From an uncultured Candidatus Saccharibacteria bacterium (GTDB taxonomy: Bacteria; Patescibacteriota; Minisyncoccia; Sungbacterales; HO2-52-23), in NCBI GenBank assembly GCA_964361695.1, contig CAYIBQ010000002.1, forward strand, positions 1 to 50,130: a stretch of DNA of 50,130 nt, given 5' to 3'. Shown one piece after another: positions 2,643 to 50,130 of the stretch; positions within the stretch are counted from its first letter, which is position 1; the number at the start of each line of letters is the position of its first letter. A model generated the notes under the pieces. The model was not told the DNA's origin and made no database searches. It saw only the letters and a list, made by a program, of their open reading frames with translations. A program made the position numbers and the translations under genes.

Positions 2643-3039
2643 TGAATACCTTCGCTAAAACGGATCGCTCTATACGTACAAACTTCTTTTCCGCGGTCTT
2701 TGATTCCTCGTGATGGAGTCCCGACAGGTGAAGCATACCATGCAGAACCATCCATGTCATCTGATATTTGAAGCTGTGTTTTTGTTTTTTCGCCTCGGCC
2801 CTGATCACCGAGGGGCATACCAGTATTTCCCCATAGGCAGGCGAATACCGAAAAGACAGGACGTTGGTTGCCCTGTCTTTTTTGCGATACCGGCGGTTGA
2901 TCGCGCGGGATTTCGCCGGAGAGAGGGCGACAACGGCAACTTCCTTTGGAAGTTGCCGTTGTATGACAGACGACAAATCCTTGACAATCCGCTTAAAAAA
3001 TGATAGATTTTTCGGCGTGCGTAGGATGAGTTCCTTCAT
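2611..3039 (-). CDS. ybeY: rRNA maturation endoribonuclease YbeY
   Basis: 142 aa with the metal-binding motif HGMLHLSGLHH (H-x3-H-x5-H). The 3' end overlaps the ftsA start by 32 nt. Confidence 0.85.
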   Translation of the reverse strand: MKELILRTPKNLSFFKRIVKDLSSVIQRQLPKEVAVVALSPAKSRAINRRYRKKDRATNVLSFRYSPAYGEILVCPSVIRAEAKKQKHSFKYQMTWMVLHGMLHLSGLHHEESKTAEKKFVRIERSVLAKVFNGAEEHRHGS

Positions 3040-3069
3040 TGTTTTTGTACCTCAAAGAGGGGTAGTGAA

Positions 3070-4945: not shown

Positions 4946-6330
4946 CAGTATTTTTTCAATTTTTTCTTCAGAAAATCTACAAGCTTGTCCTGCGACACGG
5001 TCTCCTGTATGCCTGACCCGACTTCCCTGACAATTACCGTCCCGTCCAGCGCTTCTTTTTGTCCTAGAATTACGGCAAACCGCGCACCCAGACGCTCGGC
5101 AATTTTCAACTGGGTCTTGATTGAATCGCGGCCGAGCGATTCTTTTGCCTCTATCTCGCCCTCGCGCAATGCTTCCAAAATCTCAAAACTCCGGCGCTTG
5201 GCCAAGTCACCCAATTGCACGAAAAAGACCTCAACCGTTCCCTGCTGGTTTATCTCCTCCTGTCGCGCAAGCGCTCCTGCCACAGTTTCTAGAAACATGA
5301 TGCCTACGACAACCGGCAGTTCCTTGCCGCCGATGAGTGACGCGGCATGGGACAGACGCCCTCCTTCGGCCAGCACCTGCTTGCCCATAGGCGCTTGCGG
5401 CAGAACCTGGCTGACAGATTCCGGCACCGGCATGGGCGCCTCCGCATTATCCGGAGATGGCGCCATCGTCTGTGGTTGACGGGGCAAGGGCTCTTTGCGC
5501 TCAAGCAACAGTTCAAAGATAACCTCACTGTACCATGAACCGTCCCTGAAAAACTTGGGATCCAGGAAATACGGAATTTTGGCTTCGTCCAGGAATTCCA
5601 GGAGCGAGCGCAACTGTTTTTTACACCCGTCACAGAGAAAATCAAGCACTTGCGGGGCTGAAGCCGCGATGCTCCGGCACCGTTCTTCTGTACATGAAAG
5701 AATACGGGTAGGTATTTTTTTCAGATCGCGCTTGGAACGAGTACACAGACGCGCCGCGTGTCTTCGGAAGTAACTGCCCAGCGATGCCCTGTATGAGCCG
5801 CGGCATGCGGCACATCCGATGGCATTGAGGCGCAGTTCAATGGAGCGATCGTTGATGCCCAGTTCCGCGGTGGCGCGGTAAAAGACCTGGGCAATGCCGG
5901 TCTCTGCCACCGCACTCTCCTCGCCAATGATGACCACTCCCCACTCATCGCGGGCAACAATGGCATTACCCGCTGACACCGGAAGCTGGCAAAATCCGTG
6001 CGCGTGGAAGAACAACTTCACCGGATGCGGCATATCCTGCATGCGATGCGAGAAGTATGCGCGTATCGCGCCGATGGCGCCCGACGGCGTCAGCAAAATA
6101 TCCTCGCCGCTCTGGACTTTGCATCGCGCAAGCGGCCATTCGTCCAGCATACCCGCACGAACGAGCGGCGTGAGGACTGCCGCTTGCTCCAGAGGAGAGG
6201 TGATTATTTTCTCAAAACCGTAAAAACGCGCGATGGTGCTGGCCGTATGTTCTATATCGGCAAAGCGGACGGCGTCACGGGGCAGGCGGTCCAATTGATG
6301 CATCCATTCCTCAATCTTTTTTTTCATCAT
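4945..6330 (-). CDS. Histidyl-tRNA synthetase-like protein with degenerate class II catalytic motifs
   Basis: HisRS-like architecture: a Cys-rich insertion domain and a C-terminal anticodon-binding domain (VFFVQLG..AVILGQKE). Motif 2, the RGLDYY motif and motif 3 are not conserved (see finding). Start taken at MMKKK (6330). Confidence 0.6.
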   Translation of the reverse strand: MMKKKIEEWMHQLDRLPRDAVRFADIEHTASTIARFYGFEKIITSPLEQAAVLTPLVRAGMLDEWPLARCKVQSGEDILLTPSGAIGAIRAYFSHRMQDMPHPVKLFFHAHGFCQLPVSAGNAIVARDEWGVVIIGEESAVAETGIAQVFYRATAELGINDRSIELRLNAIGCAACRGSYRASLGSYFRRHAARLCTRSKRDLKKIPTRILSCTEERCRSIAASAPQVLDFLCDGCKKQLRSLLEFLDEAKIPYFLDPKFFRDGSWYSEVIFELLLERKEPLPRQPQTMAPSPDNAEAPMPVPESVSQVLPQAPMGKQVLAEGGRLSHAASLIGGKELPVVVGIMFLETVAGALARQEEINQQGTVEVFFVQLGDLAKRRSFEILEALREGEIEAKESLGRDSIKTQLKIAERLGARFAVILGQKEALDGTVIVREVGSGIQETVSQDKLVDFLKKKLKKY

Positions 6331-6340
6331 AACGGTCAAT

Positions 6341-6997
6341 CTAGTAGTTGAATGCCTCTCCAGTGACCGGACCAAAGCGGCCGACGGGCCATGCGCGAAA
6401 AACTGCGCGCCCCACGAGCATGTCTTCGGGCAGGACGCCCCACAGGCGCGAATCAGAACTGAAGTCGCGGTTGTCGCCCATCACAAAATACTCACCCGCG
6501 CCGAGTTTTGTCTCCACGGACGGATGGGTTGATCTGCCGGGCAGATCAAGATACTGCTCCTGCAGGGTAAATCCTTCGGGGTACTGGTCGTTGAAAATCA
6601 TCACAGTTCCCTTTTCTATCTTTATTCGCTCGCGCGGGAGTCCGATGATGCGTTTGATAAAAAACTGGCGCGGGTCGCGGGGATAGTGGAACACAATGGT
6701 CTCCCCTCGCTGGGGTTCGCGGAAGTAATACGACGCCTCATCAATGATGAGATATTCCCGGTCCATAAATGTCGGCTCCATGGATGCCCCGCGCACCACG
6801 AACGGCTGGGCTATGAAATAGCGGATGGGGATAATGATCGCGGCCGAGATGAGTAGCACCCGCACCACCTCTCCAATTTCCGCGAATACTCGTGACACTT
6901 TGGATGCCGTCGGCTCTTGCACGGTTTCGGGAACGAACGGCGGGGTATGACTGTCCTGTGCTTCGGACTGATGTTCGGACAATTTGCTTTCCTGCAT
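6341..6997 (-). CDS. lepB: Signal peptidase I
   Basis: Catalytic Ser box GASMEPTF and box E GDNRDFSSDSRLWG. Start set at MQESK (6997), because the longer ORF (7051) would overlap the divergent pth gene. Confidence 0.85.
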   Translation of the reverse strand: MQESKLSEHQSEAQDSHTPPFVPETVQEPTASKVSRVFAEIGEVVRVLLISAAIIIPIRYFIAQPFVVRGASMEPTFMDREYLIIDEASYYFREPQRGETIVFHYPRDPRQFFIKRIIGLPRERIKIEKGTVMIFNDQYPEGFTLQEQYLDLPGRSTHPSVETKLGAGEYFVMGDNRDFSSDSRLWGVLPEDMLVGRAVFRAWPVGRFGPVTGEAFNY

Positions 6998-7605: not shown

Positions 7606-8349
7606 ATGCGACATACTGAATCTGCAGGCGAAGTAGCCCGCCACGAAGAACAAGAACACAACCTTACGCCCGAAAAGGCATGGACATTGTTTTTTAATTC
7701 CTATCTCTTCTCGCAAGGAAGCACCTCGTTGCAAGATACTATTTTCAAATGGCTCCACGCGCAATACCCTGATTGGCGCATCGCCGAGGAACATATGGAT
7801 CACATCTCTCATGTTGGTCCGAAAAGAATCGGACGTTACATATCCTCTCAGGCAAGCGGACATAAAGCAACGCCTCCCGAGGCCATTAGAAACAGTGTTA
7901 TTCAAGAACTCGCTGCACTTCAAACCACATTTGCTGAACCACTCCCTGCCGTATCGGATGTTTTGGAAAACTATAAAAAAACTCTCGTAGAGGCCATCGC
8001 TCGTGAGAGTATAGAGCGTGATTACAGATTTCTCATAGTAAACCAGCGGCCGTGGGGACCTTTACCACAGACACAGGAAGAGATAGAAGCTTATGGGGAC
8101 GAGGCGGAAAACCCGCCGCATACAAGAGGGATCAGCCACGTTATGCGCTACGCATTGGGAGGAGGGGAAGCACCGACCGAAGAATACACACTGATGTGGA
8201 CAGAGGTCGCGCGATGGATCCGCGAACACATCATGACCAGCAATGATCTAGAAATGAGGGGACTGCGTGAAAAGCTTGTCCGCATCAACGAAGTCCACCG
8301 CAAATCCCAAAACGCAAAACTTGAAGATTCCGAAGGAGGGGAGGCATAA
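7606..8349 (+). CDS. Hypothetical protein
   Basis: Roughly 247-aa ORF with coding-like composition and no recognisable motif. Start taken at the ATG 5 nt after the pth stop. Confidence 0.5.
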   Translation: MRHTESAGEVARHEEQEHNLTPEKAWTLFFNSYLFSQGSTSLQDTIFKWLHAQYPDWRIAEEHMDHISHVGPKRIGRYISSQASGHKATPPEAIRNSVIQELAALQTTFAEPLPAVSDVLENYKKTLVEAIARESIERDYRFLIVNQRPWGPLPQTQEEIEAYGDEAENPPHTRGISHVMRYALGGGEAPTEEYTLMWTEVARWIREHIMTSNDLEMRGLREKLVRINEVHRKSQNAKLEDSEGGEA

Positions 8350-12287: not shown

Positions 12288-13382
12288 ATGACCGACGGAG
12301 AAATAGTTTTTCTCAACGCGTTCAGCACAATTCCGGGCGTGGGTGCGGTGACCATGCGCGCGCTCAAGGATCATTTCGGATCATACGAGGCCGCGTGGCG
12401 CGCGGATACCGTGCAGTATGCGGCAGTGCATCTGGATACGTCGGCGCGCGTAGCACTGATGGCAGGGAAGCGTATGGTGCATCCGGCAGGAGCTTTGCGC
12501 CGCGTTGCAGAGACAGGAGCGTGGATGATGGCCGAAGATGATCCGTTGTATCCCCCGCTTCTCAAACATATTCATTCGCCTCCTGCAATCCTCTATGGCA
12601 AAGGACAGAAATCGGCGCTCACGCCCGAGATCTGCGGCATCGCCGTCGTGGGCACGCGCCGCCCTACGCCATACGGCATTTCCGCCGCAGAACATATTGT
12701 CCAAGGATTGACATATGCCGGCATTACGGTTATAAGCGGACTGGCGACGGGCATTGATACCAAGGCGCACAAAACGGTGCTGGAACACGGCGGGACTACG
12801 GTTGCCGTGCTCGGCTCCGGCATTGATTCCGCATCACTGTTCCCGCCGGAAAATCGCATGCTCGCCGAGCGCATTGCCCAGTCCCCCGGCGCTGTGATTT
12901 CCGAATATGCGCCGGGTACGCCGGCGGTCAAAGAGCACTTTCCCATGCGGAACCGCATCATCGCAGGACTCGCACGGGGCACGTTGGTCGTGGAAGCCCG
13001 TGAAAAATCGGGCGCCTTGATCACCGCGCGCAGCGCATTGGAAGAAAATCGGGATGTGTTCGCGGTACCCGGCTCCATTTTCTCGGCGGTGTCTGCGGGC
13101 CCGAACCGACTCATCCGTGAGGGTGCGCGCGTGGCCATGGGACATGGGGATATACTGGAAGAGTTGGGCATCGTTGCCCCGTCTGCAGTGCATGAGACAC
13201 ACCATGAATCACTGACGGAGAAGGAGCGCATGATACTCGGCCTCATGGAACACCCCCTCGGCATTGACGACATCCGCGAACAGACCCGCCTTCCGGTGCC
13301 GGAGATTATGGCAACACTTTCCCTGCTTGAACTAAAACAAATGGTCCGGGGCGTCGGCGGCGATATATTTCAAAAGGTATAA
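12288..13382 (+). CDS. dprA: DNA processing protein DprA (Smf)
   Basis: VGTRRPTPYG and SGLATGIDTKAH motifs. Start set at the ATG at 12288, preceded by GAGGGA. Confidence 0.88.
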   Translation: MTDGEIVFLNAFSTIPGVGAVTMRALKDHFGSYEAAWRADTVQYAAVHLDTSARVALMAGKRMVHPAGALRRVAETGAWMMAEDDPLYPPLLKHIHSPPAILYGKGQKSALTPEICGIAVVGTRRPTPYGISAAEHIVQGLTYAGITVISGLATGIDTKAHKTVLEHGGTTVAVLGSGIDSASLFPPENRMLAERIAQSPGAVISEYAPGTPAVKEHFPMRNRIIAGLARGTLVVEAREKSGALITARSALEENRDVFAVPGSIFSAVSAGPNRLIREGARVAMGHGDILEELGIVAPSAVHETHHESLTEKERMILGLMEHPLGIDDIREQTRLPVPEIMATLSLLELKQMVRGVGGDIFQKV

Positions 13383-15472
13383 TGGCAAAAAATAGGAAAA
13401 ATCTCGTGATCGTAGAAAGCCCCAGCAAGGGGCGCACTATATCCCGCTTTCTCGGCGATGATTTTATCGTGGAATCCAGCTATGGCCACATCAGGGATCT
13501 GCCCTCATCCAAGCTCGGCGTTGATGTGGAACACAATTTTGCCCCGCACTATATCATTCCGCTCAAAGCCCGGGCTAACGTAAAGAAATTGAAGAGTATC
13601 ACCGCAAAAGCCGATACCGTCATCCTCGCAACTGACGAGGACCGCGAAGGAGAAGCAATCGCGTGGCACTTGAGCGAAGCGCTCGGTTTGGGCACCGCCA
13701 AAGGACCCAGGACGCAACGGATTGTTTTTCATGAGATCACCGAACGCGCGATCAAGGAAGCGTTGGAACACCCGCGCGATCTGGATATGCATCTCGTAGA
13801 TGCCCAGCAGGCGCGGCGCGTACTGGACCGGCTCGTGGGATACAAGCTCTCGCCATTTTTGTGGAAAAAAATATATCGCGGCCTGTCTGCGGGGCGCGTG
13901 CAATCGGTCGCGGTGCGGCTGATCGTAGAGCGCGAGCGGGAAATCCAGGCATTTGTTCCCCGCGAATATTGGACCGTCAGCGCCCAACTTGCCAAGACCG
14001 GCCGCACCGAAGTTTTTACCGCATTGCTTGCAAAAATTGACGAGAAAGCGGTTGAAAAATTTGATATTGAACATAAAGAGCGCGCCGACAATGTGGTGGC
14101 TGATCTCCAGGGCGCCTCATGGCAGGTGGAAACCGTAGAAAAGCGCGCGGTCACCAAAAATCCCCTGCCGCCCTATACCACATCCACCCTTCAACAGGAC
14201 GCGTTCCGCCGCCTCGGTTTTTCCGCAAAGCAGACCATGCGCGTGGCCCAGCAATTATACGAAGGCATCCCCCTGGGTCCCGCAGGTCCGGTCGGGCTTA
14301 TTACCTACATGCGCACGGACTCGCTCAATCTGGCGGAAAGCGCTATTGCCGACGCTCATCGGTTTATCAAAAAAGAATTTGGCGACACGTATACACTGGC
14401 CGCACCACGCCGTTTCAAAACCAAATCCAAGGGTGCCCAGGAAGCGCACGAAGCCATCCGTCCCACCGACCCTTCGCGGACACCGGAGAGCGTCATGCCT
14501 TTTCTGGATCGCCGGCAATTCCGGCTCTACGACCTGGTGTGGCGACGTTTTATGGCAACCCAGATGCCACCTGCTATCTTTGATGCAACGGGTATCGATA
14601 TCGTTGCATCAAAGATAGCAATCCCAAATCCCAAATCCCAAATCCCAAATTCTTCTTATGTATTCCGGGCCACGGGACAAACCCAGCGATTTGACGGTTT
14701 TCTCAAAGTATACCCGGTGAAATTTTCAGAAATGTCTCTGCCGGACGTGGCTCCCCAAGACGCGCTGGGCATGCAACGCCTCATTCCGGAACAGCATTTT
14801 ACCGAGCCACCCCCGCGCTACACCGAAGCAACGCTCGTCAAAACACTGGAAACACACGGCATCGGCAGGCCGTCCACGTATGCACCTATCATCTCAACCA
14901 TTCAGGACCGCAAATATGTAGAGCGCCACGACCGCAGGACGCTCAAGCCCACCGAGGTCGGCTTTCTCGTCAACGATCTTCTGGTCGCACACTTTCCCCA
15001 GGTCGTGGACACGCAGTTCACCGCGAAAATGGAGCAGGAGTTTGATGCCATCGCGGAGGGGAACATGGCGTGGCAGCCGGTCATCAAAGAATTTTATGAG
15101 CCCTTTGCCAAGAATCTTGAACAAAAGTACGAAGAAGTAAAAAAGCACCACACGGATGAGGCGACGGAAGAGGTGTGCGAGAAATGCGGAAAGCCGATGG
15201 TCATCAAATTCGGCAGATTCGGCAAATTTATGGCGTGCACCGGTTTTCCCGAATGCAGAAATACCAAGCCGCTTGCCGGACAGGAGAAACCGTCCCCGCA
15301 AAAAATTGATATGGCGTGTCCGAAATGTACCGAAGGAGACGTCATCATGCGGCGCACCAAGCGCGGAAAAATGTTTTACGGCTGTTCCCGATACCCCCAA
15401 TGCGACTGGGCCTCATGGGACGACCCGCGCAATCCGCCAAAAGAGAAAAAAGGAAAAGAGGAAACGTCATAA
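13382..15472 (+). CDS. topA: DNA topoisomerase I
   Basis: 696 aa. TOPRIM domain LVIVESPSKGRTI..ATDEDREGEAIAWH, active-site region, and two C-terminal zinc ribbons (CEKCGKP..CTGFPEC; CPKC..CSRYPQC). Overlaps the dprA stop as TAATG. Confidence 0.95.
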   Translation: MAKNRKNLVIVESPSKGRTISRFLGDDFIVESSYGHIRDLPSSKLGVDVEHNFAPHYIIPLKARANVKKLKSITAKADTVILATDEDREGEAIAWHLSEALGLGTAKGPRTQRIVFHEITERAIKEALEHPRDLDMHLVDAQQARRVLDRLVGYKLSPFLWKKIYRGLSAGRVQSVAVRLIVEREREIQAFVPREYWTVSAQLAKTGRTEVFTALLAKIDEKAVEKFDIEHKERADNVVADLQGASWQVETVEKRAVTKNPLPPYTTSTLQQDAFRRLGFSAKQTMRVAQQLYEGIPLGPAGPVGLITYMRTDSLNLAESAIADAHRFIKKEFGDTYTLAAPRRFKTKSKGAQEAHEAIRPTDPSRTPESVMPFLDRRQFRLYDLVWRRFMATQMPPAIFDATGIDIVASKIAIPNPKSQIPNSSYVFRATGQTQRFDGFLKVYPVKFSEMSLPDVAPQDALGMQRLIPEQHFTEPPPRYTEATLVKTLETHGIGRPSTYAPIISTIQDRKYVERHDRRTLKPTEVGFLVNDLLVAHFPQVVDTQFTAKMEQEFDAIAEGNMAWQPVIKEFYEPFAKNLEQKYEEVKKHHTDEATEEVCEKCGKPMVIKFGRFGKFMACTGFPECRNTKPLAGQEKPSPQKIDMACPKCTEGDVIMRRTKRGKMFYGCSRYPQCDWASWDDPRNPPKEKKGKEETS
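14578..14650 (+). repeat. 13-bp perfect inverted repeat followed by an (ATCCCAA)x4 heptanucleotide tandem repeat, inside the topA ORF
   Basis: CTTTGATGCAACG-11 nt-CGTTGCATCAAAG (14578-14614), then ATCCCAA x4 plus AT (14621-14650). The repeat encodes the loop ..SKIAIPNPKSQIPNSS.. Confidence 0.9.
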
Positions 15473-33119: not shown

Positions 33120-33282
33120 GAGATGGTTACAAGACCCTTTATTCTACTGCACACGCAGAAATCCGGCTGCGGCTTCGTCCGTCCTCCTCGGCGTACTTTC
33201 CCCAAGTACGCCTTCGTCGTCCGTCCTCGCCTCGCTCGGATTTCTGCGTGTTCGCTACGAAACAGGGTTTTGTAACCATCTC
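33120..33282. repeat. 163-nt compound palindromic element filling the tsaC / cytidylyltransferase intergenic region
   Basis: The outer arms GAGATGGTTACAA/TTGTAACCATCTC and the inner arms ACGCAGAAATCCG/CGGATTTCTGCGT are perfect. There is an apical 9-bp hairpin GGCGTACTT/AAGTACGCC, flanked by two CT-rich loops that share CGTCCGTCCTC. Confidence 0.7.
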
Positions 33283-36951: not shown

Positions 36952-37792
36952 TGTTGATGCTGAATAATGTTTGTGCGTTCATGGTCGTGCGGACACAAAT
37001 CTCTTCATAGGAAAGGGTTTTTATCTCGCCCAATTTTCTGGCGGTCTCGGTGACATAGGCGGGTTCATTTCTTCTGCCCCGATGGGGAACGGGTGTAATA
37101 TACGGCGCATCTGTTTCCAACACAATACGCTCTATCGGTATGTAGCGTACCACCGTATCATAGTCGCGGGCAAACGTGATCACCCCTCCAAATGAAAACG
37201 AAAATCCCAAGTCCAAAAGCCGCCGCGCGTCTGCTACACTACCAGCAAAGAAATGAATGATCCCCCGTCGTGTCAGCAAATCACTCTGTCGCGCGGTGAG
37301 TACATCAATGAGATCCGCAAACGCATTGCGGCAATGTATCATGAGGGGCTTTTGTACATCGTGTGCGAGCGTGATCTGTTGTTCAAAAGCGGAGTATTGA
37401 ATTTCTTTTGTTTTTTCTTCCAGACGGTAGTAGTCCAGGCCGCACTCCCCGATCGCGACAACTTTGGAATCCTCGGCAAGTTTTTTATAGTGCGCGTAAT
37501 CAAACGCCTCTCCGCGACTGATAAATCCTCCGTCATCAGCGCCCAGTTCGTGCTTGTCGTGATACGACGCAGAGGTATGAATCGGGTGCAGTCCGACCGT
37601 CGCAAACACGCCGCGCTCATACCGACGCGCAGTCGCTATGGCCGCGGCTGATGTGTCACGCTGGGTGCCGACATTCACCATCCATATACCCGTATCTAAA
37701 GCACGCCGAATCACCGCATCCTGATCATCGGCGTAGGCGGCAAACTGCGTATGGGTATGGACGTCAAACAACTGCGAGGTTTTCTCTGTCAT
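36941..37792 (-). CDS. tatD: TatD family metal-dependent hydrolase/DNase
   Basis: N-terminal FDVHTHTQF (HxH), 283 aa, TIM-barrel hydrolase pattern. Its start overlaps the stop of the upstream toxin as ATGA. Confidence 0.88.
   Translation of the reverse strand: MTEKTSQLFDVHTHTQFAAYADDQDAVIRRALDTGIWMVNVGTQRDTSAAAIATARRYERGVFATVGLHPIHTSASYHDKHELGADDGGFISRGEAFDYAHYKKLAEDSKVVAIGECGLDYYRLEEKTKEIQYSAFEQQITLAHDVQKPLMIHCRNAFADLIDVLTARQSDLLTRRGIIHFFAGSVADARRLLDLGFSFSFGGVITFARDYDTVVRYIPIERIVLETDAPYITPVPHRGRRNEPAYVTETARKLGEIKTLSYEEICVRTTMNAQTLFSINNAI
37704..37771. repeat. Direct repeat copy 1 (inside the tatD 5' coding region)
   Basis: 68 bp, matching 38338-38405 at 63 of 68 positions. Confidence 0.9.
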
Positions 37793-38333: not shown

Positions 38334-38420
38334 GCGCCGCCGGATCACCGCATCCTGATCATTGGCGTAGGCGGCAAACTGCGTACGGGTATGGGCGTCA
38401 AATAAACGAGGCGCTTCCAT
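38325..38420 (-). pseudogene. Displaced 5' fragment of tatD (31 codons)
   Basis: Encodes MEAPRLFDAHTRTQFAAYANDQDAVIRRRLT*, compared with intact TatD ..LFDVHTHTQFAAYADDQDAVIRRALD... The HxH motif has decayed to HTR. Begins 5 nt after the upstream gene's stop. Confidence 0.65.
38338..38405. repeat. Direct repeat copy 2 (tatD remnant)
   Basis: 68 bp, matching 37704-37771 at 63 of 68 positions. Confidence 0.9.
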
Positions 38421-42831: not shown

Positions 42832-42969
42832 GGAAATTCCGAATTACAAATAACAAACTACAAACAAATCCCAAATTCCAATATACAAATTACAAACGCG
42901 CGTTTTGGTGATTGGTGTTTCGGTCATTGGAGTTTATTTGGGATTTCGTGCTTGGAATTTGAAATTTCC
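42832..42969. repeat. Strand-asymmetric (AC-rich arm / GT-rich arm) imperfect long inverted repeat filling the intergenic spacer
   Basis: The arms run GGAAATTCC..CAAATCCCAAATTCC..ACAAACGCG | CGCGTTTTGG..ATTTGGGATTTC..GGAATTT..GAAATTTCC. The apex is the perfect palindrome AAACGCGCGTTT. Confidence 0.6.
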
Positions 42970-42970
42970 T

Positions 42971-44239
42971 TTATAGTACCAAAAGCTTCTCAAACGGCTC
43001 TTTCTCTTTGATCGGCCCGATCATGGCGAGATTCAGCCGTTCCGGCCTCATGAGTTCTGCGGCCACCGCCCGCAGGTCATCGGCGGTCACTGATTCTATC
43101 TTAGCAAAAATCTCGTCGGGTGTCTGCGGCTTGCCTGTAGTCATCTCCTCGGTGCCGATAAAGCTGGCAACCGCGTTGGACTGCTCCAGGCCGATGAGCG
43201 TGATGCCACGGATATAATCTTTGACGCGTTTGAGTTCGGCCGCTGGCACCGGCTCTGCGATGACGCGTCGGTATTCCTCCATTGCCGCGCGGATGGTTGC
43301 CTCAATGTTTTTATGATCCACGCCCGCATACGTCATGAGAAATCCGCGGTTTGAATATGATTCATGCGCGGTAAATACGGTATAGGCAAGGCCGAGTTTC
43401 TCGCGGATGCGGTCCCACATGCGGGCACTCCACGATCCGCCCAGAATGGCGGCGAGTACTTCGGCGGTATAGCGGCGCGGATGGTCGGCTGAAAACCCGC
43501 GAAAGCCCAGAGCAATGTGCGTCTGATCGGTCTCTTTATATTCCAGATGAAGCGCTGGTAGTGTCTGGGATTCCACAACCGATGGCTTGGTACGCATGGG
43601 TGCGGCTTCCCGCACGCCGGAAAAAAGTTCGGTGATAGTACGTATCGTTTCCTGCTCGTCAAAATTACCCGCAACCACGACTGCCGTATTGCCCGCCACA
43701 TACTGATGCGTGAAATAATCCGTGAAGTTCTGGCGCGTGAGCATGCGGATAGTTTTTTCCTCACCGATCACGTCCCATCCGGCTGGCTGGTCGCCGTACA
43801 GCAGATGCTCCCACACCCACCATATATACATCGTGGGCGTATCGCGGTCTTTGTGCAGCTCCTCAATGATCACCTGCCGCTCGCGCTCAATTTCTTCCGC
43901 CTGCAAAAGAGGGTTTTTATAAATATCGGCGAGTAAATCCAGCGACTGGCCCAGATATGTTTTGGCCGCCTTGATGTGATAGCCCGTCAGCTCATGGCTG
44001 GTGAATGCATTAGAGATAGAGCCCATGCCGTCCAGTTCATGTTTGATCGCATCGGGTGAGGGGCGGTTGGCAGTCCCCTTGAAAAACATATGCTCCAAAA
44101 AGTGCGAAATGCCCCCGATCTCGCGCGCCTCATGATCGGAGCCTGTCCCGCACAGCACCAGAACCGTGACCGTATTTGTCCCCTGCATGGGAGCCGTAAT
44201 AATCCGCAACCCGCTGGGAAGAATGGTTTTTTTGAACAT
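42971..44239 (-). CDS. M16 family zinc peptidase (pitrilysin-like)
   Basis: Inverted zinc motif HFLEHMFFKGT (HxxEH). Start set at MFKKTIL (44239). Confidence 0.88.
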   Translation of the reverse strand: MFKKTILPSGLRIITAPMQGTNTVTVLVLCGTGSDHEAREIGGISHFLEHMFFKGTANRPSPDAIKHELDGMGSISNAFTSHELTGYHIKAAKTYLGQSLDLLADIYKNPLLQAEEIERERQVIIEELHKDRDTPTMYIWWVWEHLLYGDQPAGWDVIGEEKTIRMLTRQNFTDYFTHQYVAGNTAVVVAGNFDEQETIRTITELFSGVREAAPMRTKPSVVESQTLPALHLEYKETDQTHIALGFRGFSADHPRRYTAEVLAAILGGSWSARMWDRIREKLGLAYTVFTAHESYSNRGFLMTYAGVDHKNIEATIRAAMEEYRRVIAEPVPAAELKRVKDYIRGITLIGLEQSNAVASFIGTEEMTTGKPQTPDEIFAKIESVTADDLRAVAAELMRPERLNLAMIGPIKEKEPFEKLLVL

Positions 44240-44243
44240 GTGT

Positions 44244-44540
44244 TCAATATGTTTTAGACGTTCTCCGTTCCAGCCGAAACACGAGCAATATTTTTTCTTC
44301 CACCTTGATTTTATAGAAAACACGATAAGCGCCTGTTCGGCGCCGCCACGTATTTTCCTCGCCTTTCATTTTCTGGATATCGCCAAAATACGGATCGGCG
44401 GGCAACAATCTGATAACCACGAGCAACGCTTCCGCATCACGCCGCGGAAGGGTCCGAAGCGTTTTGAAAACAACCGAATCAATCTGCAAATCCCAGTTTT
44501 CTGACGAGTGCATGATAGGAAAGCGTTTTTCCTCGCTCAA
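44244..44540 (-). CDS. relE: RelE/ParE-superfamily toxin (paralogue of 22282-22539)
   Basis: WRRRTGAYRVFYKIKVEEKILLVFRLERRTSKTY, parallel to the C-terminus of the 22282 toxin. The start is uncertain (Met1 or Met10). Confidence 0.7.
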   Translation of the reverse strand: MSEEKRFPIMHSSENWDLQIDSVVFKTLRTLPRRDAEALLVVIRLLPADPYFGDIQKMKGEENTWRRRTGAYRVFYKIKVEEKILLVFRLERRTSKTY

Positions 44541-44697
44541 GATTTTTCTCAGCTTTTCTCAACGCCGCGCGTTGTGCCGCACTCGGCGTAAACTCCGCGG
44601 TTTTCCGCAATTCGGTCAACGCTTCGTACTCCTTGCGCGGAATCACGATTAGATCGTCTCGTTGGGCTAATGTTCTCGGTATCGTTATCGTTGGCAT
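44479..44697 (-). CDS. Putative antitoxin (paralogue of 22514-22741)
   Basis: MPTITIPRTLAQRDDLIVIPRKEYEAL; same architecture and same overlap as the other pair. Confidence 0.55.
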   Translation of the reverse strand: MPTITIPRTLAQRDDLIVIPRKEYEALTELRKTAEFTPSAAQRAALRKAEKNLERGKTLSYHALVRKLGFAD

Positions 44698-44710
44698 AAG
44701 AATATCTGGG

Positions 44711-44866
44711 CTAACCTGTCATTGAAAGATGGAGCTCCACCGCTTCTTGAATGTTTGCCGTCAGCTCGTCTGGTGTCTTCCCCTGCGTCACCACGGGCAG
44801 ATCAATGCCTTCAGCCACATACTGCCGTTCTCCCTTAAAAATATGGAATTGAATGATGCGCTTCAT
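44711..44866 (-). CDS. Short orphan HicB-like (UPF0150) ORF
   Basis: Hand translation gives MKRIIQFHIFKGERQYVAEGIDLPVVTQGKTPDELTANIQEAVELHLSMTG (51 aa, below the ORF-track cut-off). Confidence 0.45.
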   Translation of the reverse strand: MKRIIQFHIFKGERQYVAEGIDLPVVTQGKTPDELTANIQEAVELHLSMTG

Positions 44867-45190: not shown

Positions 45191-46518
45191 AGTTGCAATT
45201 TTTCAAGAAACCTAAGATGTAGTTCAGAACTGTGCATCCTTTCTTGTATTGCCGTGTCGCGGTCGCGGATAGTGACCGTATCGTCTTCCAGCGTCTGAAA
45301 GTCCACGGTTATGCAGTACGGAGTACCAATTTCGTCCTGGGAGTAATACCGCTTGCCGATGTTGCCGCGCTCGTCCCACGCAATGTTTAAATTTTGTAAC
45401 TTTAAATTTTTAAATATCATCCGTGCTTTCTCCACGAGCTGGGGTTTATTGGCAAGCAGAGGAAATACGGCGGCAGTGTAGGGTGCGAGCCGCGGATGCA
45501 ATTTCAGGATGACGCGATCGCCTTCTTCGTGGTATGCGTCCAAAAGGAAAAAGAGCAGAGCGCGATCCACCCCTGCCGACGTTTCAATCACCCATGGCGT
45601 ATAGCGCGTTTTGCTCGCTTCGTCAAAATACGTGAGATCCGCGCCTGAATACTCGGCATGGCGCTTCATATCCCAGTCCCCGCGATGATGGATACCCATC
45701 ATCTCTTTCCATCCGCCAAACGGCGTATCATATTCTATATCCCATGCGGTACTGGCATAGTGCGCGCGCTCGTCGGGCGCGTGCTCGCGAAAACGCATTT
45801 TTTCCGACCGCATACCCAGCCCCACGAACCACTGCATCCTCTCGTTTTTCCAATACTCAAACCACTGCATGGACTCCGCCTCATCCGGCGGCACATAGTA
45901 TTGCAGTTCCATCTGTTCAAACTCCCTGCTGCGGAAAATGAAGTTGCCCGGCGTGATCTCGTTGCGAAACGCACGGCCGATCTGTATGATGCCGAACGGA
46001 ATTTTCACCCGCGTGGAATCCAGAACATTTTTGAAATTGACGTGTACGCCCTGCGTTATCTCGCCGCGCAGGTACACTTTTAGTTTTTCTCCTTCCACCG
46101 AGCCGAGCCATGCTTCTACAAGGAGATTGAATGTCTTGGGCTCCGTCCACTCCGCTTTTTCTTTTTTCTTCGCGTGCATCTCCCTATGCGATTCCAACTC
46201 CTCCCGATGATCCGCGCGAAAGCGCTGATGGCACAGTTTGCATTCCACCAACGGATCACTGAATGCTTCGGTATGTCCCGACGCTTCCCAGACCCGCGGA
46301 TTCATGAGAACCGAGGCATCCAAGCCCACGATGTCGTCGCGTTCCAGCGTATGCGCGCGCCAAAACTCCCGCTTAAGATTATTTTTCATCAGCGTACCCA
46401 GAGGGCCGTAGTCCCACGTACCCGCAAGCCCGCCGTAAATTTCCGAACCCGGAAAAAGGAAGCCGCGCCGTTTGGCGAGCGCTACTATTTTTTCCATGAT
46501 CTGAGAGTTGTCGTTCAT
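45187..46518 (-). CDS. glyQS: Glycyl-tRNA synthetase (homodimeric class II GlyQS type)
   Basis: 443 aa with RRGFLFPGSEIYGGLAGTWDYGPLG at the N-terminus and a C-terminal anticodon-binding domain. Confidence 0.93.
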   Translation of the reverse strand: MNDNSQIMEKIVALAKRRGFLFPGSEIYGGLAGTWDYGPLGTLMKNNLKREFWRAHTLERDDIVGLDASVLMNPRVWEASGHTEAFSDPLVECKLCHQRFRADHREELESHREMHAKKKEKAEWTEPKTFNLLVEAWLGSVEGEKLKVYLRGEITQGVHVNFKNVLDSTRVKIPFGIIQIGRAFRNEITPGNFIFRSREFEQMELQYYVPPDEAESMQWFEYWKNERMQWFVGLGMRSEKMRFREHAPDERAHYASTAWDIEYDTPFGGWKEMMGIHHRGDWDMKRHAEYSGADLTYFDEASKTRYTPWVIETSAGVDRALLFFLLDAYHEEGDRVILKLHPRLAPYTAAVFPLLANKPQLVEKARMIFKNLKLQNLNIAWDERGNIGKRYYSQDEIGTPYCITVDFQTLEDDTVTIRDRDTAIQERMHSSELHLRFLEKLQL

Positions 46519-46546
46519 AGATGGTATGAGAAAAAAGTGCGGATAG

Positions 46547-48442
46547 TTATGGTCTCACATTCCATTCTTCTCCCTTGACCAAGGGATCCTGGGGCATCTG
46601 CGTATCAAGGCCGGGTATATCCAGACGCACGTCTTGGGCGGTAAACATATCGCGGCCGGTAAAATGAGTGTCTCCGATGAGAGCCGGTGAGCTCCCAAGA
46701 TCAACGGCTGATGGGATGATAGACACCTGAAACGCGGCAACGCGCGCTGGTGTCAGCACTCCCGTGCCAGCCGGTATCCTGCCCATGCGCCACCGCACTT
46801 CTCCGGATGCGTTGTCAAACCGCACATCCGCGTCACTTGGGGATATGACGTTTTCCCATCGGACGTTGGGCGGCAGAGAAGCGCGCATCTCCCCACCCTC
46901 CACATCGTTGGTGAAATTGCGTACCTCCCAGACAATGGCATAGGTAGTTTTTTCTCCAACCTTTGGCGGCAGAGGGCCGGTATTGGGTATGGGAGAGGTG
47001 CGAAATACGGTACGACCTGCCGTCAGCACGACCGTGGATACCTTGAATGTCACGCTGTCTTCCGGAGCCAGCACAGATCCGTGCAACTCATCCGGAACAG
47101 TCGGCGTCTCAATGCGGGTGCGCATACGAATAGTCATATTTTTATCGGCGCTTGTTGATACCACCGGCCGCGGCCGCACGCGCGCCTGCAGATGCAGGGT
47201 ACCCTCATGGCCGGGTGCTGCTTCGCGCAGTACGTCAGTACCCCCCGGACCCCACACGATATTTTTGGTCGCAAAGTCAAACACGCCGCCGTCTCCGATA
47301 GTCAGCGATGAGACATCAAGCACGCTTGTCTCAAGCGCCAAACGTATGGAAACATTTTTCACCGCAACTGCCGAGCGATTGCGATACCGCACAGTCATGG
47401 AGATAAAATCCCCGGGTTTGACGATGCCCTCGCGCTGGCCCCCAATCGCGGCTTCCAGGAGAAAGGGGGATGACGAGAGCGCCACTTCGCGCACCGACTC
47501 ATACCACGGCTTCCATTCTTTTGTCAGTTCATTGAAAGATCCGATCCCCGCCCGCAGGGACTGGATGTCCCCGCCCGCGGTTCCGAATGTCGTTTTCAAC
47601 GAAATGGTTCGTTCCTCGCCGGGGGAGAGCGTGCCGACAAACCACCGCGCATCCGTACTGCTCGCTACGGGTACCGCAGAAACAATGGAAAAACCTGGTG
47701 GATATTCAAGCATGAGCCAAAGATTGTCAAACGAGGAGCCGGCCTGGGAACTGTAGCGTAGGATAATCGGCACTTCCTGTCCGGGTGTTACGGTTGCGGG
47801 TATGTCCCATGAAATCGCGAGCGGTACCCGCGCGATAGTCACTTTTTTTTCCGCTGAAGAAGAAAAGCGCGCGCGGAGTCCCGCGGGACGATACACCAGT
47901 TCCGCAAAAACAGTTTTTTCTTCCGTTTCGCGGCCGAAAAATTGTACCTGAAATTCCTCCCGCCGTTCTTCCCCCGCCGCGAGCGCCCCGATGCGGCGTA
48001 CCACGCGGCCTGCTATCGGCTCCATGAATCCTGCCTGATTTTGTAGGAGCGTGTCGGGCGGAAACATGGCCACGAGATCCGCTTCTTCCAGCACGCCACC
48101 GGACACGTTGCGAAACATGATGGGGACAGTCGTCAGTTCTCCTGCCTCCACGCGATCGCGCCCGCCGATTTCCACCTGCGCCTCATATCGGTTGCTCCCA
48201 AGATATAAAAACGCAAAAACAGCGGCGCCGATGATAAATAAAACTCCCGCGAGTGCGGCAATGGCTGTCGCTTTGGAAAATCGCCGTGCGGACGCCATAC
48301 TCGGACGCGGCTTGGCCGCCTCCCACGAAGTGCGCAGTTTATTTCCCAGAGACGGAAACATGGCCTGACGTTTGCTCCTGCCGGTCGGCAATTTGTCTTC
48401 CCGTCCGTAGAGGGACTCTTCAAGTTCGTCCAGCTTACTCAT
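46547..48442 (-). CDS. Large membrane-anchored hypothetical protein (beta-rich extracellular repeats)
   Basis: 631 aa. One N-terminal TM helix (AIAALAGVLFIIGAAVFAFLYL) followed by long beta-strand-like repeats. No catalytic motif recognised. Confidence 0.6.
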   Translation of the reverse strand: MSKLDELEESLYGREDKLPTGRSKRQAMFPSLGNKLRTSWEAAKPRPSMASARRFSKATAIAALAGVLFIIGAAVFAFLYLGSNRYEAQVEIGGRDRVEAGELTTVPIMFRNVSGGVLEEADLVAMFPPDTLLQNQAGFMEPIAGRVVRRIGALAAGEERREEFQVQFFGRETEEKTVFAELVYRPAGLRARFSSSAEKKVTIARVPLAISWDIPATVTPGQEVPIILRYSSQAGSSFDNLWLMLEYPPGFSIVSAVPVASSTDARWFVGTLSPGEERTISLKTTFGTAGGDIQSLRAGIGSFNELTKEWKPWYESVREVALSSSPFLLEAAIGGQREGIVKPGDFISMTVRYRNRSAVAVKNVSIRLALETSVLDVSSLTIGDGGVFDFATKNIVWGPGGTDVLREAAPGHEGTLHLQARVRPRPVVSTSADKNMTIRMRTRIETPTVPDELHGSVLAPEDSVTFKVSTVVLTAGRTVFRTSPIPNTGPLPPKVGEKTTYAIVWEVRNFTNDVEGGEMRASLPPNVRWENVISPSDADVRFDNASGEVRWRMGRIPAGTGVLTPARVAAFQVSIIPSAVDLGSSPALIGDTHFTGRDMFTAQDVRLDIPGLDTQMPQDPLVKGEEWNVRP

Positions 48443-48447
48443 CTCTT

Positions 48448-48921
48448 TTATACTATCCCCTCTTCATCAGACGCGCCATACCCCAGAGACACCCTGAATC
48501 GTGCCCGAAAATCAGTGAGAAACGGAGACATATCATCTTCAGAGAATTCTTCGTGGTCAAGTACCGCAAACGTATGGTTGAGCAGTTCCCATATCTGGGT
48601 ATCTTTTTCACCCGGAAAACATTGTATATCCACCTCGCGCGCGATCTCGGCGGCCACCAGCAGCGTATGCTCGCGCGAACGCAGGCGCGGGAAAAAGTCG
48701 GCGAGCGTGGCGCCGATCAGTTTTTCCCCGCCCCTGCCGATGACAAATTGAACACGCGCGAGCGACAGCGGCTCCAGATGCCCGCGCAGTTTTGCCTCCT
48801 CCCGGCGTACACCCTGGGCAAGAGCGCGCATTTTCCCAAAATCGCGCGTATACATGCTGTAGAGCGCATCATGCTCCCCCACATCCAGTTTTTTCAAGAC
48901 AATCCCCTCGGTATGGTGCAT
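48448..48921 (-). CDS. recO: DNA repair protein RecO (short form, no zinc-finger C-terminus)
   Basis: 157 aa with MHHTEGIVLKKLDVGEHDALYSMYTRDFGKMRALAQGVRR, an OB-fold RecO N-terminus. Confidence 0.8.
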   Translation of the reverse strand: MHHTEGIVLKKLDVGEHDALYSMYTRDFGKMRALAQGVRREEAKLRGHLEPLSLARVQFVIGRGGEKLIGATLADFFPRLRSREHTLLVAAEIAREVDIQCFPGEKDTQIWELLNHTFAVLDHEEFSEDDMSPFLTDFRARFRVSLGYGASDEEGIV

Positions 48922-48927
48922 ACCGCA

Positions 48928-49929
48928 TTATGCGGTTTTTTCTGACAAGAGCGCAATATCGCGCCTGATCCTTTGCGCATTTCCGTGCCCCAGCATCCCG
49001 AGATATGATTGCACCACTTCTCCTTTCCCGACTTTCTTGCTGATAGTGCGCATCATCCTCCGCTTTGTCGCTGTCCGTAGCACCCGATGATCGGCGAAAT
49101 GCACCCACCCGAGAAAGTCAACGCCCGAAGCAAGCGTTTTGATGAAGACCTTGTCCGGATGCAATACCAGATTCATCTTCTCGTGCAAGAAAGTGCCGAT
49201 CAACGGTAGTATCCGCTCAAGTGCCGCGCGATCGTCCGACAGCACAACAAAATCATCCGCGTAGCGGATATAATACCGCACTTTGAGCGTATGCTTCACA
49301 AACTGATCAAACTCATTCATATATACGTTCGCAAAAAGCTGGGACGTGAGATTACCGAGCGGCAAGCCCGTGCCTTGCTTCTCCGATGAAAAACTTGAGA
49401 TCACTTCCCACAACAGTCCGAGAATACGAGCGTCCGGAATATACTGCCACAGAATATCCAGCAGTACGGTGTGATCCACACTCGCAAAGAACTTTTTGAT
49501 GTCGCACTTGAGTACCCAACACGCGCGCGTGTTATTTTTACTCACCATGCGGCCGAACGCGCGAAAACGGTTGATGGCGCGATGGGTACCCTTCTCCACT
49601 CTGCACGAATACGAGTCAGTAATAAACACGCGGTCAAAGAAGGGATACAGTTTCCGATAGAGCGCGTGGTGCAGGAGCCGATCTCGCACCGTCGCTTTGT
49701 GGATAATCCGCGGTTTGGGATCGGAGATGTTGAAGGCATGATAGCCGCCGTGGCAATAGGTGCGATTGGCAAGATCGCGGTGGAGCGCAAGAATATTATC
49801 CATAAGAGACATCTGAAACTCCTGCACGTCTTGTTTATTCCGCTTGCCTTTGATAAACTCCCGCCATGCGTCAAGCAGATTTTCCACGCTGATAATATCT
49901 TCGTATGTATGACTCAACTGAATTTTCAT
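48928..49929 (-). CDS. Reverse transcriptase, diversity-generating retroelement (DGR) type
   Basis: 333 aa. Has the DGR-typical motif LPLGNLTSQLFANVY, the catalytic YADD, an N-terminal LLDAWREFIKGKRNKQDV, and SYSCRVEKGTH. The ATG at 49929 is preceded by GGAGG plus 5 nt. Confidence 0.85.
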   Translation of the reverse strand: MKIQLSHTYEDIISVENLLDAWREFIKGKRNKQDVQEFQMSLMDNILALHRDLANRTYCHGGYHAFNISDPKPRIIHKATVRDRLLHHALYRKLYPFFDRVFITDSYSCRVEKGTHRAINRFRAFGRMVSKNNTRACWVLKCDIKKFFASVDHTVLLDILWQYIPDARILGLLWEVISSFSSEKQGTGLPLGNLTSQLFANVYMNEFDQFVKHTLKVRYYIRYADDFVVLSDDRAALERILPLIGTFLHEKMNLVLHPDKVFIKTLASGVDFLGWVHFADHRVLRTATKRRMMRTISKKVGKGEVVQSYLGMLGHGNAQRIRRDIALLSEKTA

Positions 49930-49952
49930 AACAACCTCCAAGCGGACTTATC

Positions 49953-49972
49953 CACACACACACACACACACA
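49953..49972. repeat. (CA)10 dinucleotide microsatellite between RT and avd
   Basis: Ten uninterrupted CA units, read directly from the sequence. Confidence 0.95.
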
Positions 49973-49985
49973 CGGACGGACGACA

Positions 49986-50130
49986 CTGCCGATTATTCAG
50001 AAGTTCGTTGCCGCATATAAGCAATGGGACGAATACAAAAACCATTTTCCGAAAAAGTCGCGATATACGCTCGGCGGGAAGATTGATACGCTGTTTCTTG
50101 AAGTCATAGAGACACTTTTCGTCGCGGGCA
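49986..50130 (+). CDS. avd: Avd-like accessory variability determinant (four-helix-bundle family), 5' part only, truncated by the window edge
   Basis: Hand translation gives ..LPIIQKFVAAYKQWDEYKNHFPKKSRYTLGGKIDTLFLEVIETLFVAG, which fits the Avd / S23-intervening-sequence-protein N-terminal pattern. There is no in-frame ATG/GTG/TTG; the CTG at 49986 is the only nearby candidate start. Confidence 0.5.
   Translation, partial: MPIIQKFVAAYKQWDEYKNHFPKKSRYTLGGKIDTLFLEVIETLFVAG

Follow-up and report, generated by a model that had tools for sequence, protein, structure and literature searches.

Reverse transcriptases (RTs) of diversity-generating retroelements (DGRs) carry the signature [I/V/L]GxxxSQ where other RT classes have QGxxxSP (PMC7826257), and 90% of the DGR set of the Candidate Phyla Radiation (CPR) has architecture B3, i.e. 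template repeat (TR)-(avd)-RT, which is almost never found elsewhere (Wu et al. 2018, Nucleic Acids Research, PMC5758913). In the Bordetella phage system, Avd is required for catalysis by the RT of that element, bRT (bioRxiv 10.1101/2023.10.23.563531). The locus considered here lies at the end of a 50,130-nt contig (CAYIBQ010000002.1) of an uncultured Candidatus Saccharibacteria bacterium, the whole of which was analysed and is called the window below. It carries an RT gene, the beginning of an avd gene on the opposite strand and, directly downstream of the RT, recO. In the reading preferred here, which is given a probability of roughly 0.8, the window at 48.9-50.13 kb is the RT-proximal half of a B3 CPR DGR, with recO as a bystander and with a simple-sequence repeat in the avd leader. 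The element is one more member of the known CPR B3 DGR group and, as first described, the finding is routine (a CPR DGR split by an assembly break, next to a bystander recO); it is the clade-wide repeat in the avd leader that could matter. The features of the cassette are the following.

48928-49929, minus strand: DGR-type RT, 333 aa from its ATG, full length.
49935-49939, minus strand: Shine-Dalgarno sequence of the RT (GGAGG), 5 nt before the RT ATG.
49909-49985, plus strand: putative avd leader, its ATG (49909-49911) being the reverse complement of RT codon 7 (His, CAT).
49953-49985: simple-sequence tract, (CA)10.5 at 49953-49973 and then GGAC GGAC GACA, as detected with Tandem Repeats Finder (TRF).
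49986-50130, plus strand: first 48 codons of the Avd body, the first codon being CTG, cut by the contig end.

Judged by its signature motif, by bRT as its closest solved relative and by the repeat pairs next to the RTs of its relatives, the window RT is of the DGR type. It contains LPLGNLTSQLFANVYM and IRYADDFVV, so that the signature is present as LGNLTSQ together with the YADD box, and the counterpart of Arg74 of bRT is kept (PKPR). In Pfam it matches RVT_1 (3e-23), and its top relative in the PDB is 8ub7_A (E 7.6e-48, 167 bits, residues 10-313 aligned); since the 8ub7 entries hold five chains named Avd, this must be the Bordetella phage bRT-Avd-RNA complex. The original prediction of a 333-aa DGR-type RT with LGNLTSQ and YADD is therefore borne out by the motifs, by the PDB search and by the cassettes of the relatives. 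An RT of another class (group II intron-like, retron or Drt/Abi defence), with the Avd-like frame as a chance match, has a negligible probability and is effectively refuted already. It could be argued from the top NCBIfam matches, which are a group II intron RT (140 bits, far below the cutoff of 300) and Drt3a, and from the Avd fragment, which by itself scores under the cutoff of the Avd family. However, bRT is far ahead as the closest solved relative (retron and group II intron RTs reach ~76 bits at most in the PDB search, versus 167 for bRT), the SQ motif specific to DGRs stands in place of QGxxxSP, and the RTs of the relatives stand in cassettes with adenine-biased repeat pairs. Furthermore, no intron RNA, maturase/endonuclease (En) domain or msr/msd accompanies the RT, and an Rfam scan of 46000-50130 gave no match.

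Relatives of the RT were collected by scanning GTDB species genomes and metagenome contigs, each scan giving more than 580 matches, of which the best 160 were used. These are 62-69% identical to the window RT and come nearly all from Patescibacteria/CPR metagenome-assembled genomes and from groundwater, sediment and lake metagenomes. Exact-protein look-ups of the window RT and recO found nothing on record, and an exact DNA search of metagenome contigs gave no match.

LPIIQKFVAAYKQWDEYKNHFPKKSRYTLGGKIDTLFLEVIETLFVAG is the product of the plus-strand frame from 49986, which is cut off by the contig end. Its match to NCBIfam NF033474 (DGR protein Avd; 3.2e-5) covers profile positions 1-47, and it is 71-87% identical to full-length Avd proteins (71% to that of relative L001, which covers the entire NF033474 profile with 79.8 bits and scores 55 bits against Pfam bAvd, PF22296, where the cutoff is 40). 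NCBI lists homologues either as 'diversity-generating retroelement protein Avd' or as 'four helix bundle protein'. The Avd partner expected of a DGR is thereby present in the window, as a fragment without an in-frame start. That an Avd-family frame begins on the opposite strand and runs off the end was part of the original prediction and stands; the distance from the RT ATG to the first Avd body codon is 56 nt rather than the ~45 nt given there. The same prediction regarded the divergent layout of avd and RT as atypical, which is not borne out: of the 148 relatives with room upstream, 142 have an Avd homologue that is encoded opposite to the RT, at 13-77 nt from the start of the RT gene. Together with the 90% share of B3 among CPR DGRs, this makes the divergent avd the norm of the clade and no oddity. 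A protein search with the Avd fragment found no candidates, probably because gene callers cannot call an open reading frame (ORF) that lacks a start. A hybrid Avd query did give 1179 homologues, the nearest of which (P0097, 87%) belongs not to this genome but to a decayed relative, L165 (ENA k141_2128355, 2161-3052). This locus has the closest Avd N-terminus that was found (87%); its RT is without residues 19-154, its avd is truncated at 114 aa, and its tract is only C7.

For the TR and the variable repeat (VR), the 104 relatives with at least 1.1 kb upstream of the RT were surveyed. Nearly all of them (97) have a repeat pair of ~95-145 nt with at least 75% of the mismatches at adenines of the RT-proximal copy, the range for TR/VR mismatches at TR adenines being 75-100%. 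Going upstream from the RT gene, the end of the TR, which lies just past the 3' end of avd, is reached after 378-546 nt (median 405) and that of the VR after a median of 872 nt, the VR being at the extreme 3' end of a gene of ~180-250 aa on the RT strand. The target is accordingly a small protein with a C-terminal VR, and it has no Pfam match. Within the 50130-nt contig no adenine-biased repeat pair was found, the contig ending ~200 nt before the predicted TR, nor did the 50-kb window contain homologues of the targets of 70 relatives or TR-like sequence. The earlier statement that the TR, VR and target are absent from the window holds up in all of these searches, including the check for an adenine-biased repeat pair. 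Two other repeats occur in the window, i.e. a 68-nt direct repeat of 93% identity (37704-37771 and 38338-38405, copies 634 nt apart), which was ruled out as a TR/VR pair because its mismatches are not adenine-biased, and an inverted repeat at 33120-33282 with 79-nt arms (71% complementary) and a 5-nt loop.

The reason why the cassette is incomplete lies in the assembly. The window is the entire 50130-nt contig and stops 145 nt into the avd body. The same aquifer yielded a contig of a second strain (L081), 97.9% identical to the window over 1.7 kb, that ends at the identical base. In three public runs the strain alleles, as seen in k-mer contigs, are separate up to 50075 and merge at 50076. As 50076 + 54 equals 50130, the contig end is the k=55 overlap at a strain bubble, which means that position 50130 is an assembly break (an artefact of two coexisting strains) and no biological end. 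The merged unitigs extend 270, 384 and 785 nt on, to near 50345, 50459 and 50860, and their ends fall near the predicted TR and VR boundaries; the Logan contigs extend 730-1348 nt beyond the end, the furthest being that of run X4 (1348 nt past 50130). From the geometry of the relatives, the TR (~130 nt) should lie at ~50.31-50.48 kb, ~200-350 nt beyond 50130, and the VR at ~50.80-50.93 kb, ~670-800 nt beyond it. The remainder of avd and a target gene of ~200 aa, extending past the VR, would then be found on the neighbouring contig, with the TR, VR and target on the minus (RT) strand. The original view, that these parts lie beyond 50130 or elsewhere in the genome, is thus supported, the geometry of the relatives and the strain bubble in which the contig ends placing them best just past 50130.

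The (CA)10.5 tract and the subsequent GGACGGAC occupy the spot where the start of avd would be expected, and in the window Avd frame there is no ATG, GTG or TTG from the upstream stop to the contig end (codon 48); the original prediction was silent on both. A survey of 143 loci, aligned on the first conserved Avd codon, showed that this is a property of the clade: a simple repeat ends 4-16 nt upstream of the first Avd codon in 130 loci (~91%). In 119 of the 143 the avd strand has a poly-C run here, 7-14 nt long with a mode of 9-10. The other tracts are (CA)n (4 loci, including the window), (GCCA)9-11 (3 loci) and (AACC)10, (GCCAGCC)6, (CT)n and (AG)n (one each), so that the repeat units are 1, 2, 4 or 7 nt long and never a multiple of 3. 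By comparison, poly-C/G runs of at least 8 nt occur only 10 times in the remaining 1.59 Mb of the loci (0.006 per kb). The (CA)10.5 tract of the window takes the position of the poly-C tract of its relatives, and it is a repeat within a reading frame with a unit not divisible by 3, as expected for a switching simple-sequence repeat (SSR), its place inside the ORF following from the synonymous-site tests given below. In the literature searched, the CPR survey of Paul et al. 2017 being outside its scope, no link of DGRs to simple-sequence repeats, homopolymers or phase variation was found, and neither the repeat nor the overlap of avd with the RT is mentioned by Wu et al. 2018 (PMC5758913). The clade-wide presence of a repeat in this leader is therefore possibly a new property of these elements.

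Four other roles or origins of the tract were considered and rejected. As a ribosome-binding site of the RT, the poly-G/C tract would be at a variable distance (15-30 nt) from the ATG; as a promoter spacer, some of the repeats (40 nt) would be too long; and as the GC-element of a DGR initiation of mutagenic homing (IMH) site it would be in the wrong place, ~400 nt from the TR end. An assembly artefact is not compatible with its occurrence across independent studies and assemblers.

In the window, the leader that begins at the ATG of 49909-49911 reads MTQLNFHNNLQADLSTHTHTHT... through the repeat, which would give avd and the RT a head-to-head overlap of 21 nt. The distance from this ATG to body codon 49986 is 77 nt, which is 2 nt out of frame and leads to a stop at 50107-50109; the frame would be restored by one CA unit fewer or two more. 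In the second strain (L081) the leader is 67 nt, one CA unit short of frame. An ATG with a frame open through the repeat is found in 127 of 130 non-identical loci, and in the relatives it lies antisense to codon 7 or 8 of the RT, which encodes a conserved His. Its use was examined with two tests on synonymous sites. Firstly, the conserved His is encoded by CAT in 72 of 76 genes, whereas CAT accounts for 55% of the remaining His codons in these genes (p 1.2e-14). Secondly, the codons TTA, CTA and TCA, which are stops on the antisense strand, make up 0 of 68 Leu/Ser codons between RT codon 2 and this His, against 24.6% elsewhere (p 4.6e-9). Both tests point to selection on the upstream ATG and hence indicate, at the level of codon usage, that avd is read from this ATG (opposite RT codon 7) through the repeat. 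The pattern is confirmed by Avd proteins in the databases whose leaders are in frame, for example MAELNPHINALQGSPPPRV-LPIIQ and MAQFDFHNNKQVKESTHTHTHTQQV-LPIIQ.

Canonical starts closer to the body are frequently missing. In 31 of the 143 Avd ORFs, including that of the window, there is no ATG, GTG or TTG from the upstream stop to codon +11, and in 18 more such codons lie only downstream of the first body codon. That codon is TTA or CTN in ~45% of the loci, and a purine-rich stretch lies 4-8 nt upstream of it. The association between a start-capable body codon and the frame of the leader was in the expected direction and not significant (p 0.12). In L166-L170 an ATG precedes the tract in two of the three frames (MAELNPH... 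and MRFKEA...), so that the C9 and C10 alleles would both give a full Avd with different leaders.

The length of the tract varies among closely related sequences. The second strain (L081) has three CA units and one GGAC fewer than the window and is 10 nt shorter, and in runs X1-X3 a 10-nt indel is present at 49966, its alleles being linked to strain single-nucleotide polymorphisms. Between L073 and L153, from the same aquifer well, C10 versus C9 is the sole difference in 650 nt; among the contigs of four runs, G10 is found in one run and G9 in the other three, one of which shares its sample with the G10 run and shows no other difference from it. L166-L169 (C10) and L170 (C9) have 3 substitutions in 4.9 kb, L140 and L144 differ in the tract only, and L106, L029 and L164 have 9, 10 and 11 GCCA units. 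Tract-length polymorphism within a population is thus seen in contig-level data. Runs X5-X8 and X17-X20 had no useful coverage of the repeats.

Following these results, a mechanism can be proposed in which the TR-containing RNA would be copied by RT-Avd with errors opposite adenines, after which the cDNA would replace the VR, as in Bordetella. The length of the tract would set the reading frame of avd, with slippage in (CA)n or poly-C shifting that frame, and the copy in the window would represent an OFF state, one CA unit away from ON. Since Avd is required for catalysis by bRT, and thus for the synthesis of cDNA in the Bordetella system, slippage in the repeat would toggle the whole DGR. A clade-wide phase-variable avd, i.e. 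slipped-strand changes in the repeat that stochastically switch Avd, and with it adenine mutagenesis, on or off, is given about even odds on the basis of the sequence patterns. The repeats of 2, 4 and 7 nt, together with the polymorphism at the DNA level, favour a DNA-level switch.

Several observations weigh against this reading, as well as against the broader one of which it is a part. The TR, VR and target of the window element are predicted and not seen. Tract lengths were read from contigs and not from raw reads, so minority alleles are uncounted. Leader and Avd body share a frame in 38 of 127 loci (89 out of frame), which is no higher than chance, and for the element itself both strains (window and L081) are out of frame and no ON allele was observed; it is because of this lack of in-frame enrichment and of an ON allele that the probability of the switch is kept near one half. 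TTG is found at the first Avd body codon in 55 of 120 loci (46%) against 19%, which hints at an internal start in some lineages. Finally, the recurrence of recO next to an RT (in L148) and the repair-gene neighbours of other relatives, both discussed below, leave a small probability that there is a loose link to repair.

Some of these points could be accommodated if the repeat were conserved without any switch at the DNA level, with Avd made at a low, steady rate through ribosomal +1/-1 frameshifting or RNA-polymerase slippage on the tract, with translation starting at a TTG/CTG body codon and the tract in the 5' UTR, or with the G-rich tract having a role in the RT mRNA. CCC-C runs are known +1 frameshift sites, and the three frames are about equally represented (35:51:41), with a slight excess of the one that needs a +1 shift. 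The enrichment of TTG at the body codon and the purine-rich stretch upstream of it also agree with this explanation, as does L047, which has an ATG at the body codon and yet has kept C14. Nevertheless it seems rather unlikely, because di-, tetra- and heptanucleotide repeats at the same spot are of the type expected for DNA slippage and not for RNA slippage, and because tract differences are present at the DNA level within one sample and between near-identical contigs. Moreover, the body codons that are TTA or CTN (~45%) are unable to initiate, and the synonymous-site constraints favour the upstream ATG.

The absence of a canonical in-frame start could also mean that the locus is a decaying or orphan DGR remnant, in which avd is a pseudogene and the TR and VR are lost or eroded. 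In neither strain is the Avd body in frame with the leader ATG, the ribosome-binding site of the RT is weakened in the second strain (GGTGG at L081 position ~181, versus GGAGG in the window; T>A at 49937 in runs X1-X4), and decayed relatives do exist, such as L165 with its internal RT deletion and truncated avd. However, the window RT is complete and retains every catalytic motif, and no defect is seen in the 48 Avd codons. A startless or out-of-frame state is found in ~70% of the relatives with intact TR/VR and Avd bodies, the DNA past the contig end is present at full depth with unitig breaks near the predicted TR and VR, and an RNA-derived contig (see below) covers the 3' end of the RT gene. 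Decay of the element is therefore considered improbable, and a DGR whose avd is read through a variable repeat is preferred.

Downstream of the RT, the remaining features of this end of the window are the following.

48922-48936: palindrome at the RT-recO junction, ACCGCA-TAA-TGCGGT in minus-strand reading (6-bp arms), which encloses the RT stop and abuts the recO ATG.
48448-48921, minus strand: recO, 157 aa, with the OB-fold N-terminal domain and part of the helical domain, without the C-terminal zinc-finger part.
46547-48442: DUF11-repeat membrane protein, the next gene after recO and followed by glyS.

The recO product matches RecO_N (2.8e-16) and TIGR00613 (55.2 bits, cutoff 48.7), the latter over profile positions 3-129 of 239. 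RecO proteins of TIGR00613 are ~240 aa long, with an OB-fold and a helical/zinc-binding domain, whereas the 157-aa protein has no RecO_C match; a homologue in L012 is of equal length, and that in L148 (188 aa) has both domains. Between the stop codon of the RT (TAA, 48930-48928) and the recO ATG at 48921 there are 6 nt (48927-48922), exactly as the original prediction had it. A terminator scan at the junction found no minus-strand terminator, the palindrome being terminator-like for the plus strand only, which should leave read-through from RT to recO unhindered. In fact, metatranscriptome run X11 (aquifer) contains a 177-nt contig with 100% identity to 48884-49060 that spans the junction (depth 2, with DNA carry-over possible). 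RT and recO on one transcript is therefore plausible.

Such a shared transcript would be nothing special. The gene downstream of the RT is on the same strand in 85 of the 132 relatives with enough sequence past the RT, and about half of these start within 20 nt or overlap, so that tight neighbours are common; the 132 neighbours fall into 112 unrelated clusters, and only 1 of the 160 relatives has recO as the gene next to the RT on this side. That one, L148, has the order ileS-target-TR-(avd)-RT-recO-proS with an RT/recO overlap of 8 nt. In L012, L033 and L075 the recO-DUF11 pair is on the upstream side of the cassette, independent of the position of the RT. Given the single recurrence and the unrelated neighbours elsewhere, recO is read as a bystander in a compact genome, i.e. 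it is probably a host gene beside the cassette, with no dedicated DGR role seen. Of the claims made originally for this junction, co-transcription thus stays plausible (short gap, lack of a terminator, X11 contig), while the implied functional link is not supported and the presentation of the coupling as an atypical feature most likely concerns an incidental arrangement.

Among the 39 genes that closely follow the RT on its own strand in relatives, six have a role in repair or recombination, namely two RecJ-like DHH proteins, UDG, Fpg, RuvA and RecO (loci L009, L142, L019, L113, L121 and L148); ComEC is among the tight neighbours too. This enrichment is post hoc and marginal (~5 independent events in ~35, versus ~5% expected).

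A functional RT-recO operon, in which the recombination mediator would help to integrate the mutagenised cDNA into the VR, could be built on these repair-gene neighbours, on the 6-nt gap on a minus strand without terminator, on the RNA contig across the junction and on the same RT-recO order in a distant relative (L148). It is given little credence, since the order occurs in just that one relative, the 112 clusters include ribosomal proteins, tRNA synthetases, kinases and transporters, the recO-DUF11 pair can lie upstream of the cassette, and the enrichment is of the marginal kind described. Retrohoming of the Bordetella DGR is, in addition, RecA-independent.

Some further observations concern other parts of the window. 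In topA (13382-15472, plus strand) a perfect heptanucleotide repeat, (AATCCCA)4.4 at 14620-14650, lies in frame and encodes IPNPKSQIPN; a one-unit change would frameshift this essential DNA topoisomerase I gene. The motif is also present in degenerate form at 8296-8325 and 42834-42897. An M16 peptidase gene beside a ParE-like toxin pair (~42971-44323) is swapped in L082 and L083 (~5360-6670), from the same population, for a short segment with a 76-aa ORF on the other strand, which amounts to strain-level variation in gene content. Between glyS and the M16 peptidase gene, at 44244-44866, is a cluster of small toxin-antitoxin-like genes, among them a 98-aa ParE/RelE-like ORF (its L081 equivalent has a weak Pfam mark), its partner of 72 aa and an ORF of 51 aa.

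To our knowledge, the regulation of DGR activity is largely unknown. Unrestrained mutagenesis of a functional protein is costly, and a slippage switch on the essential Avd would, if it exists, keep diversification within a subpopulation in a simple manner that is both heritable and reversible. The element would then be a phase-variable hypermutator, with a bet-hedging switch on top of a diversity generator. Such a switch would explain why gene callers give inconsistent or missing starts for avd, and it predicts that tract length modulo 3 should track VR turnover in metagenomic time series. The avd-leader repeat could perhaps also be of use in engineered DGR mutagenesis systems.

Compared with the CPR B3 DGRs, the element shares the RT clade (62-69% identity to the 160 relatives) and the divergent position of avd immediately before the RT. 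It differs in that its contig holds only the RT and 48 avd codons, that recO is directly downstream (as in one other relative), and that the avd-leader repeat is (CA)n where relatives usually have poly-C. The DGR of Bordetella phage BPP-1 (bRT, Avd, TR and mtd; PDB 8ub7 series) has an RT of the same length that aligns from end to end (E 7.6e-48), with the signature motif, the Arg74 equivalent, YADD and an Avd-family partner in common, adenine mutagenesis being presumed from the relatives. Its gene order, however, is avd-TR-brt on one strand, while avd in the window is on the opposite strand, so that the TR-RT spacer would be antisense avd, and avd overlaps the RT start and contains the repeat; moreover, the host is a CPR chromosome instead of a phage. 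With the SSR contingency loci of Haemophilus, Neisseria and Campylobacter (including the phasevarion mod genes), the locus has in common a repeat in the 5' coding part, made up of a homopolymer of at least 8 nt or of units of 2, 4 or 7 nt (never a multiple of 3), tract-length differences among otherwise identical sequences, and alleles that are mostly out of frame. Unlike in those loci, the switched gene would be no surface or modification gene but an accessory factor of targeted hypermutation, and the hosts in which it would switch are environmental ultra-small bacteria.

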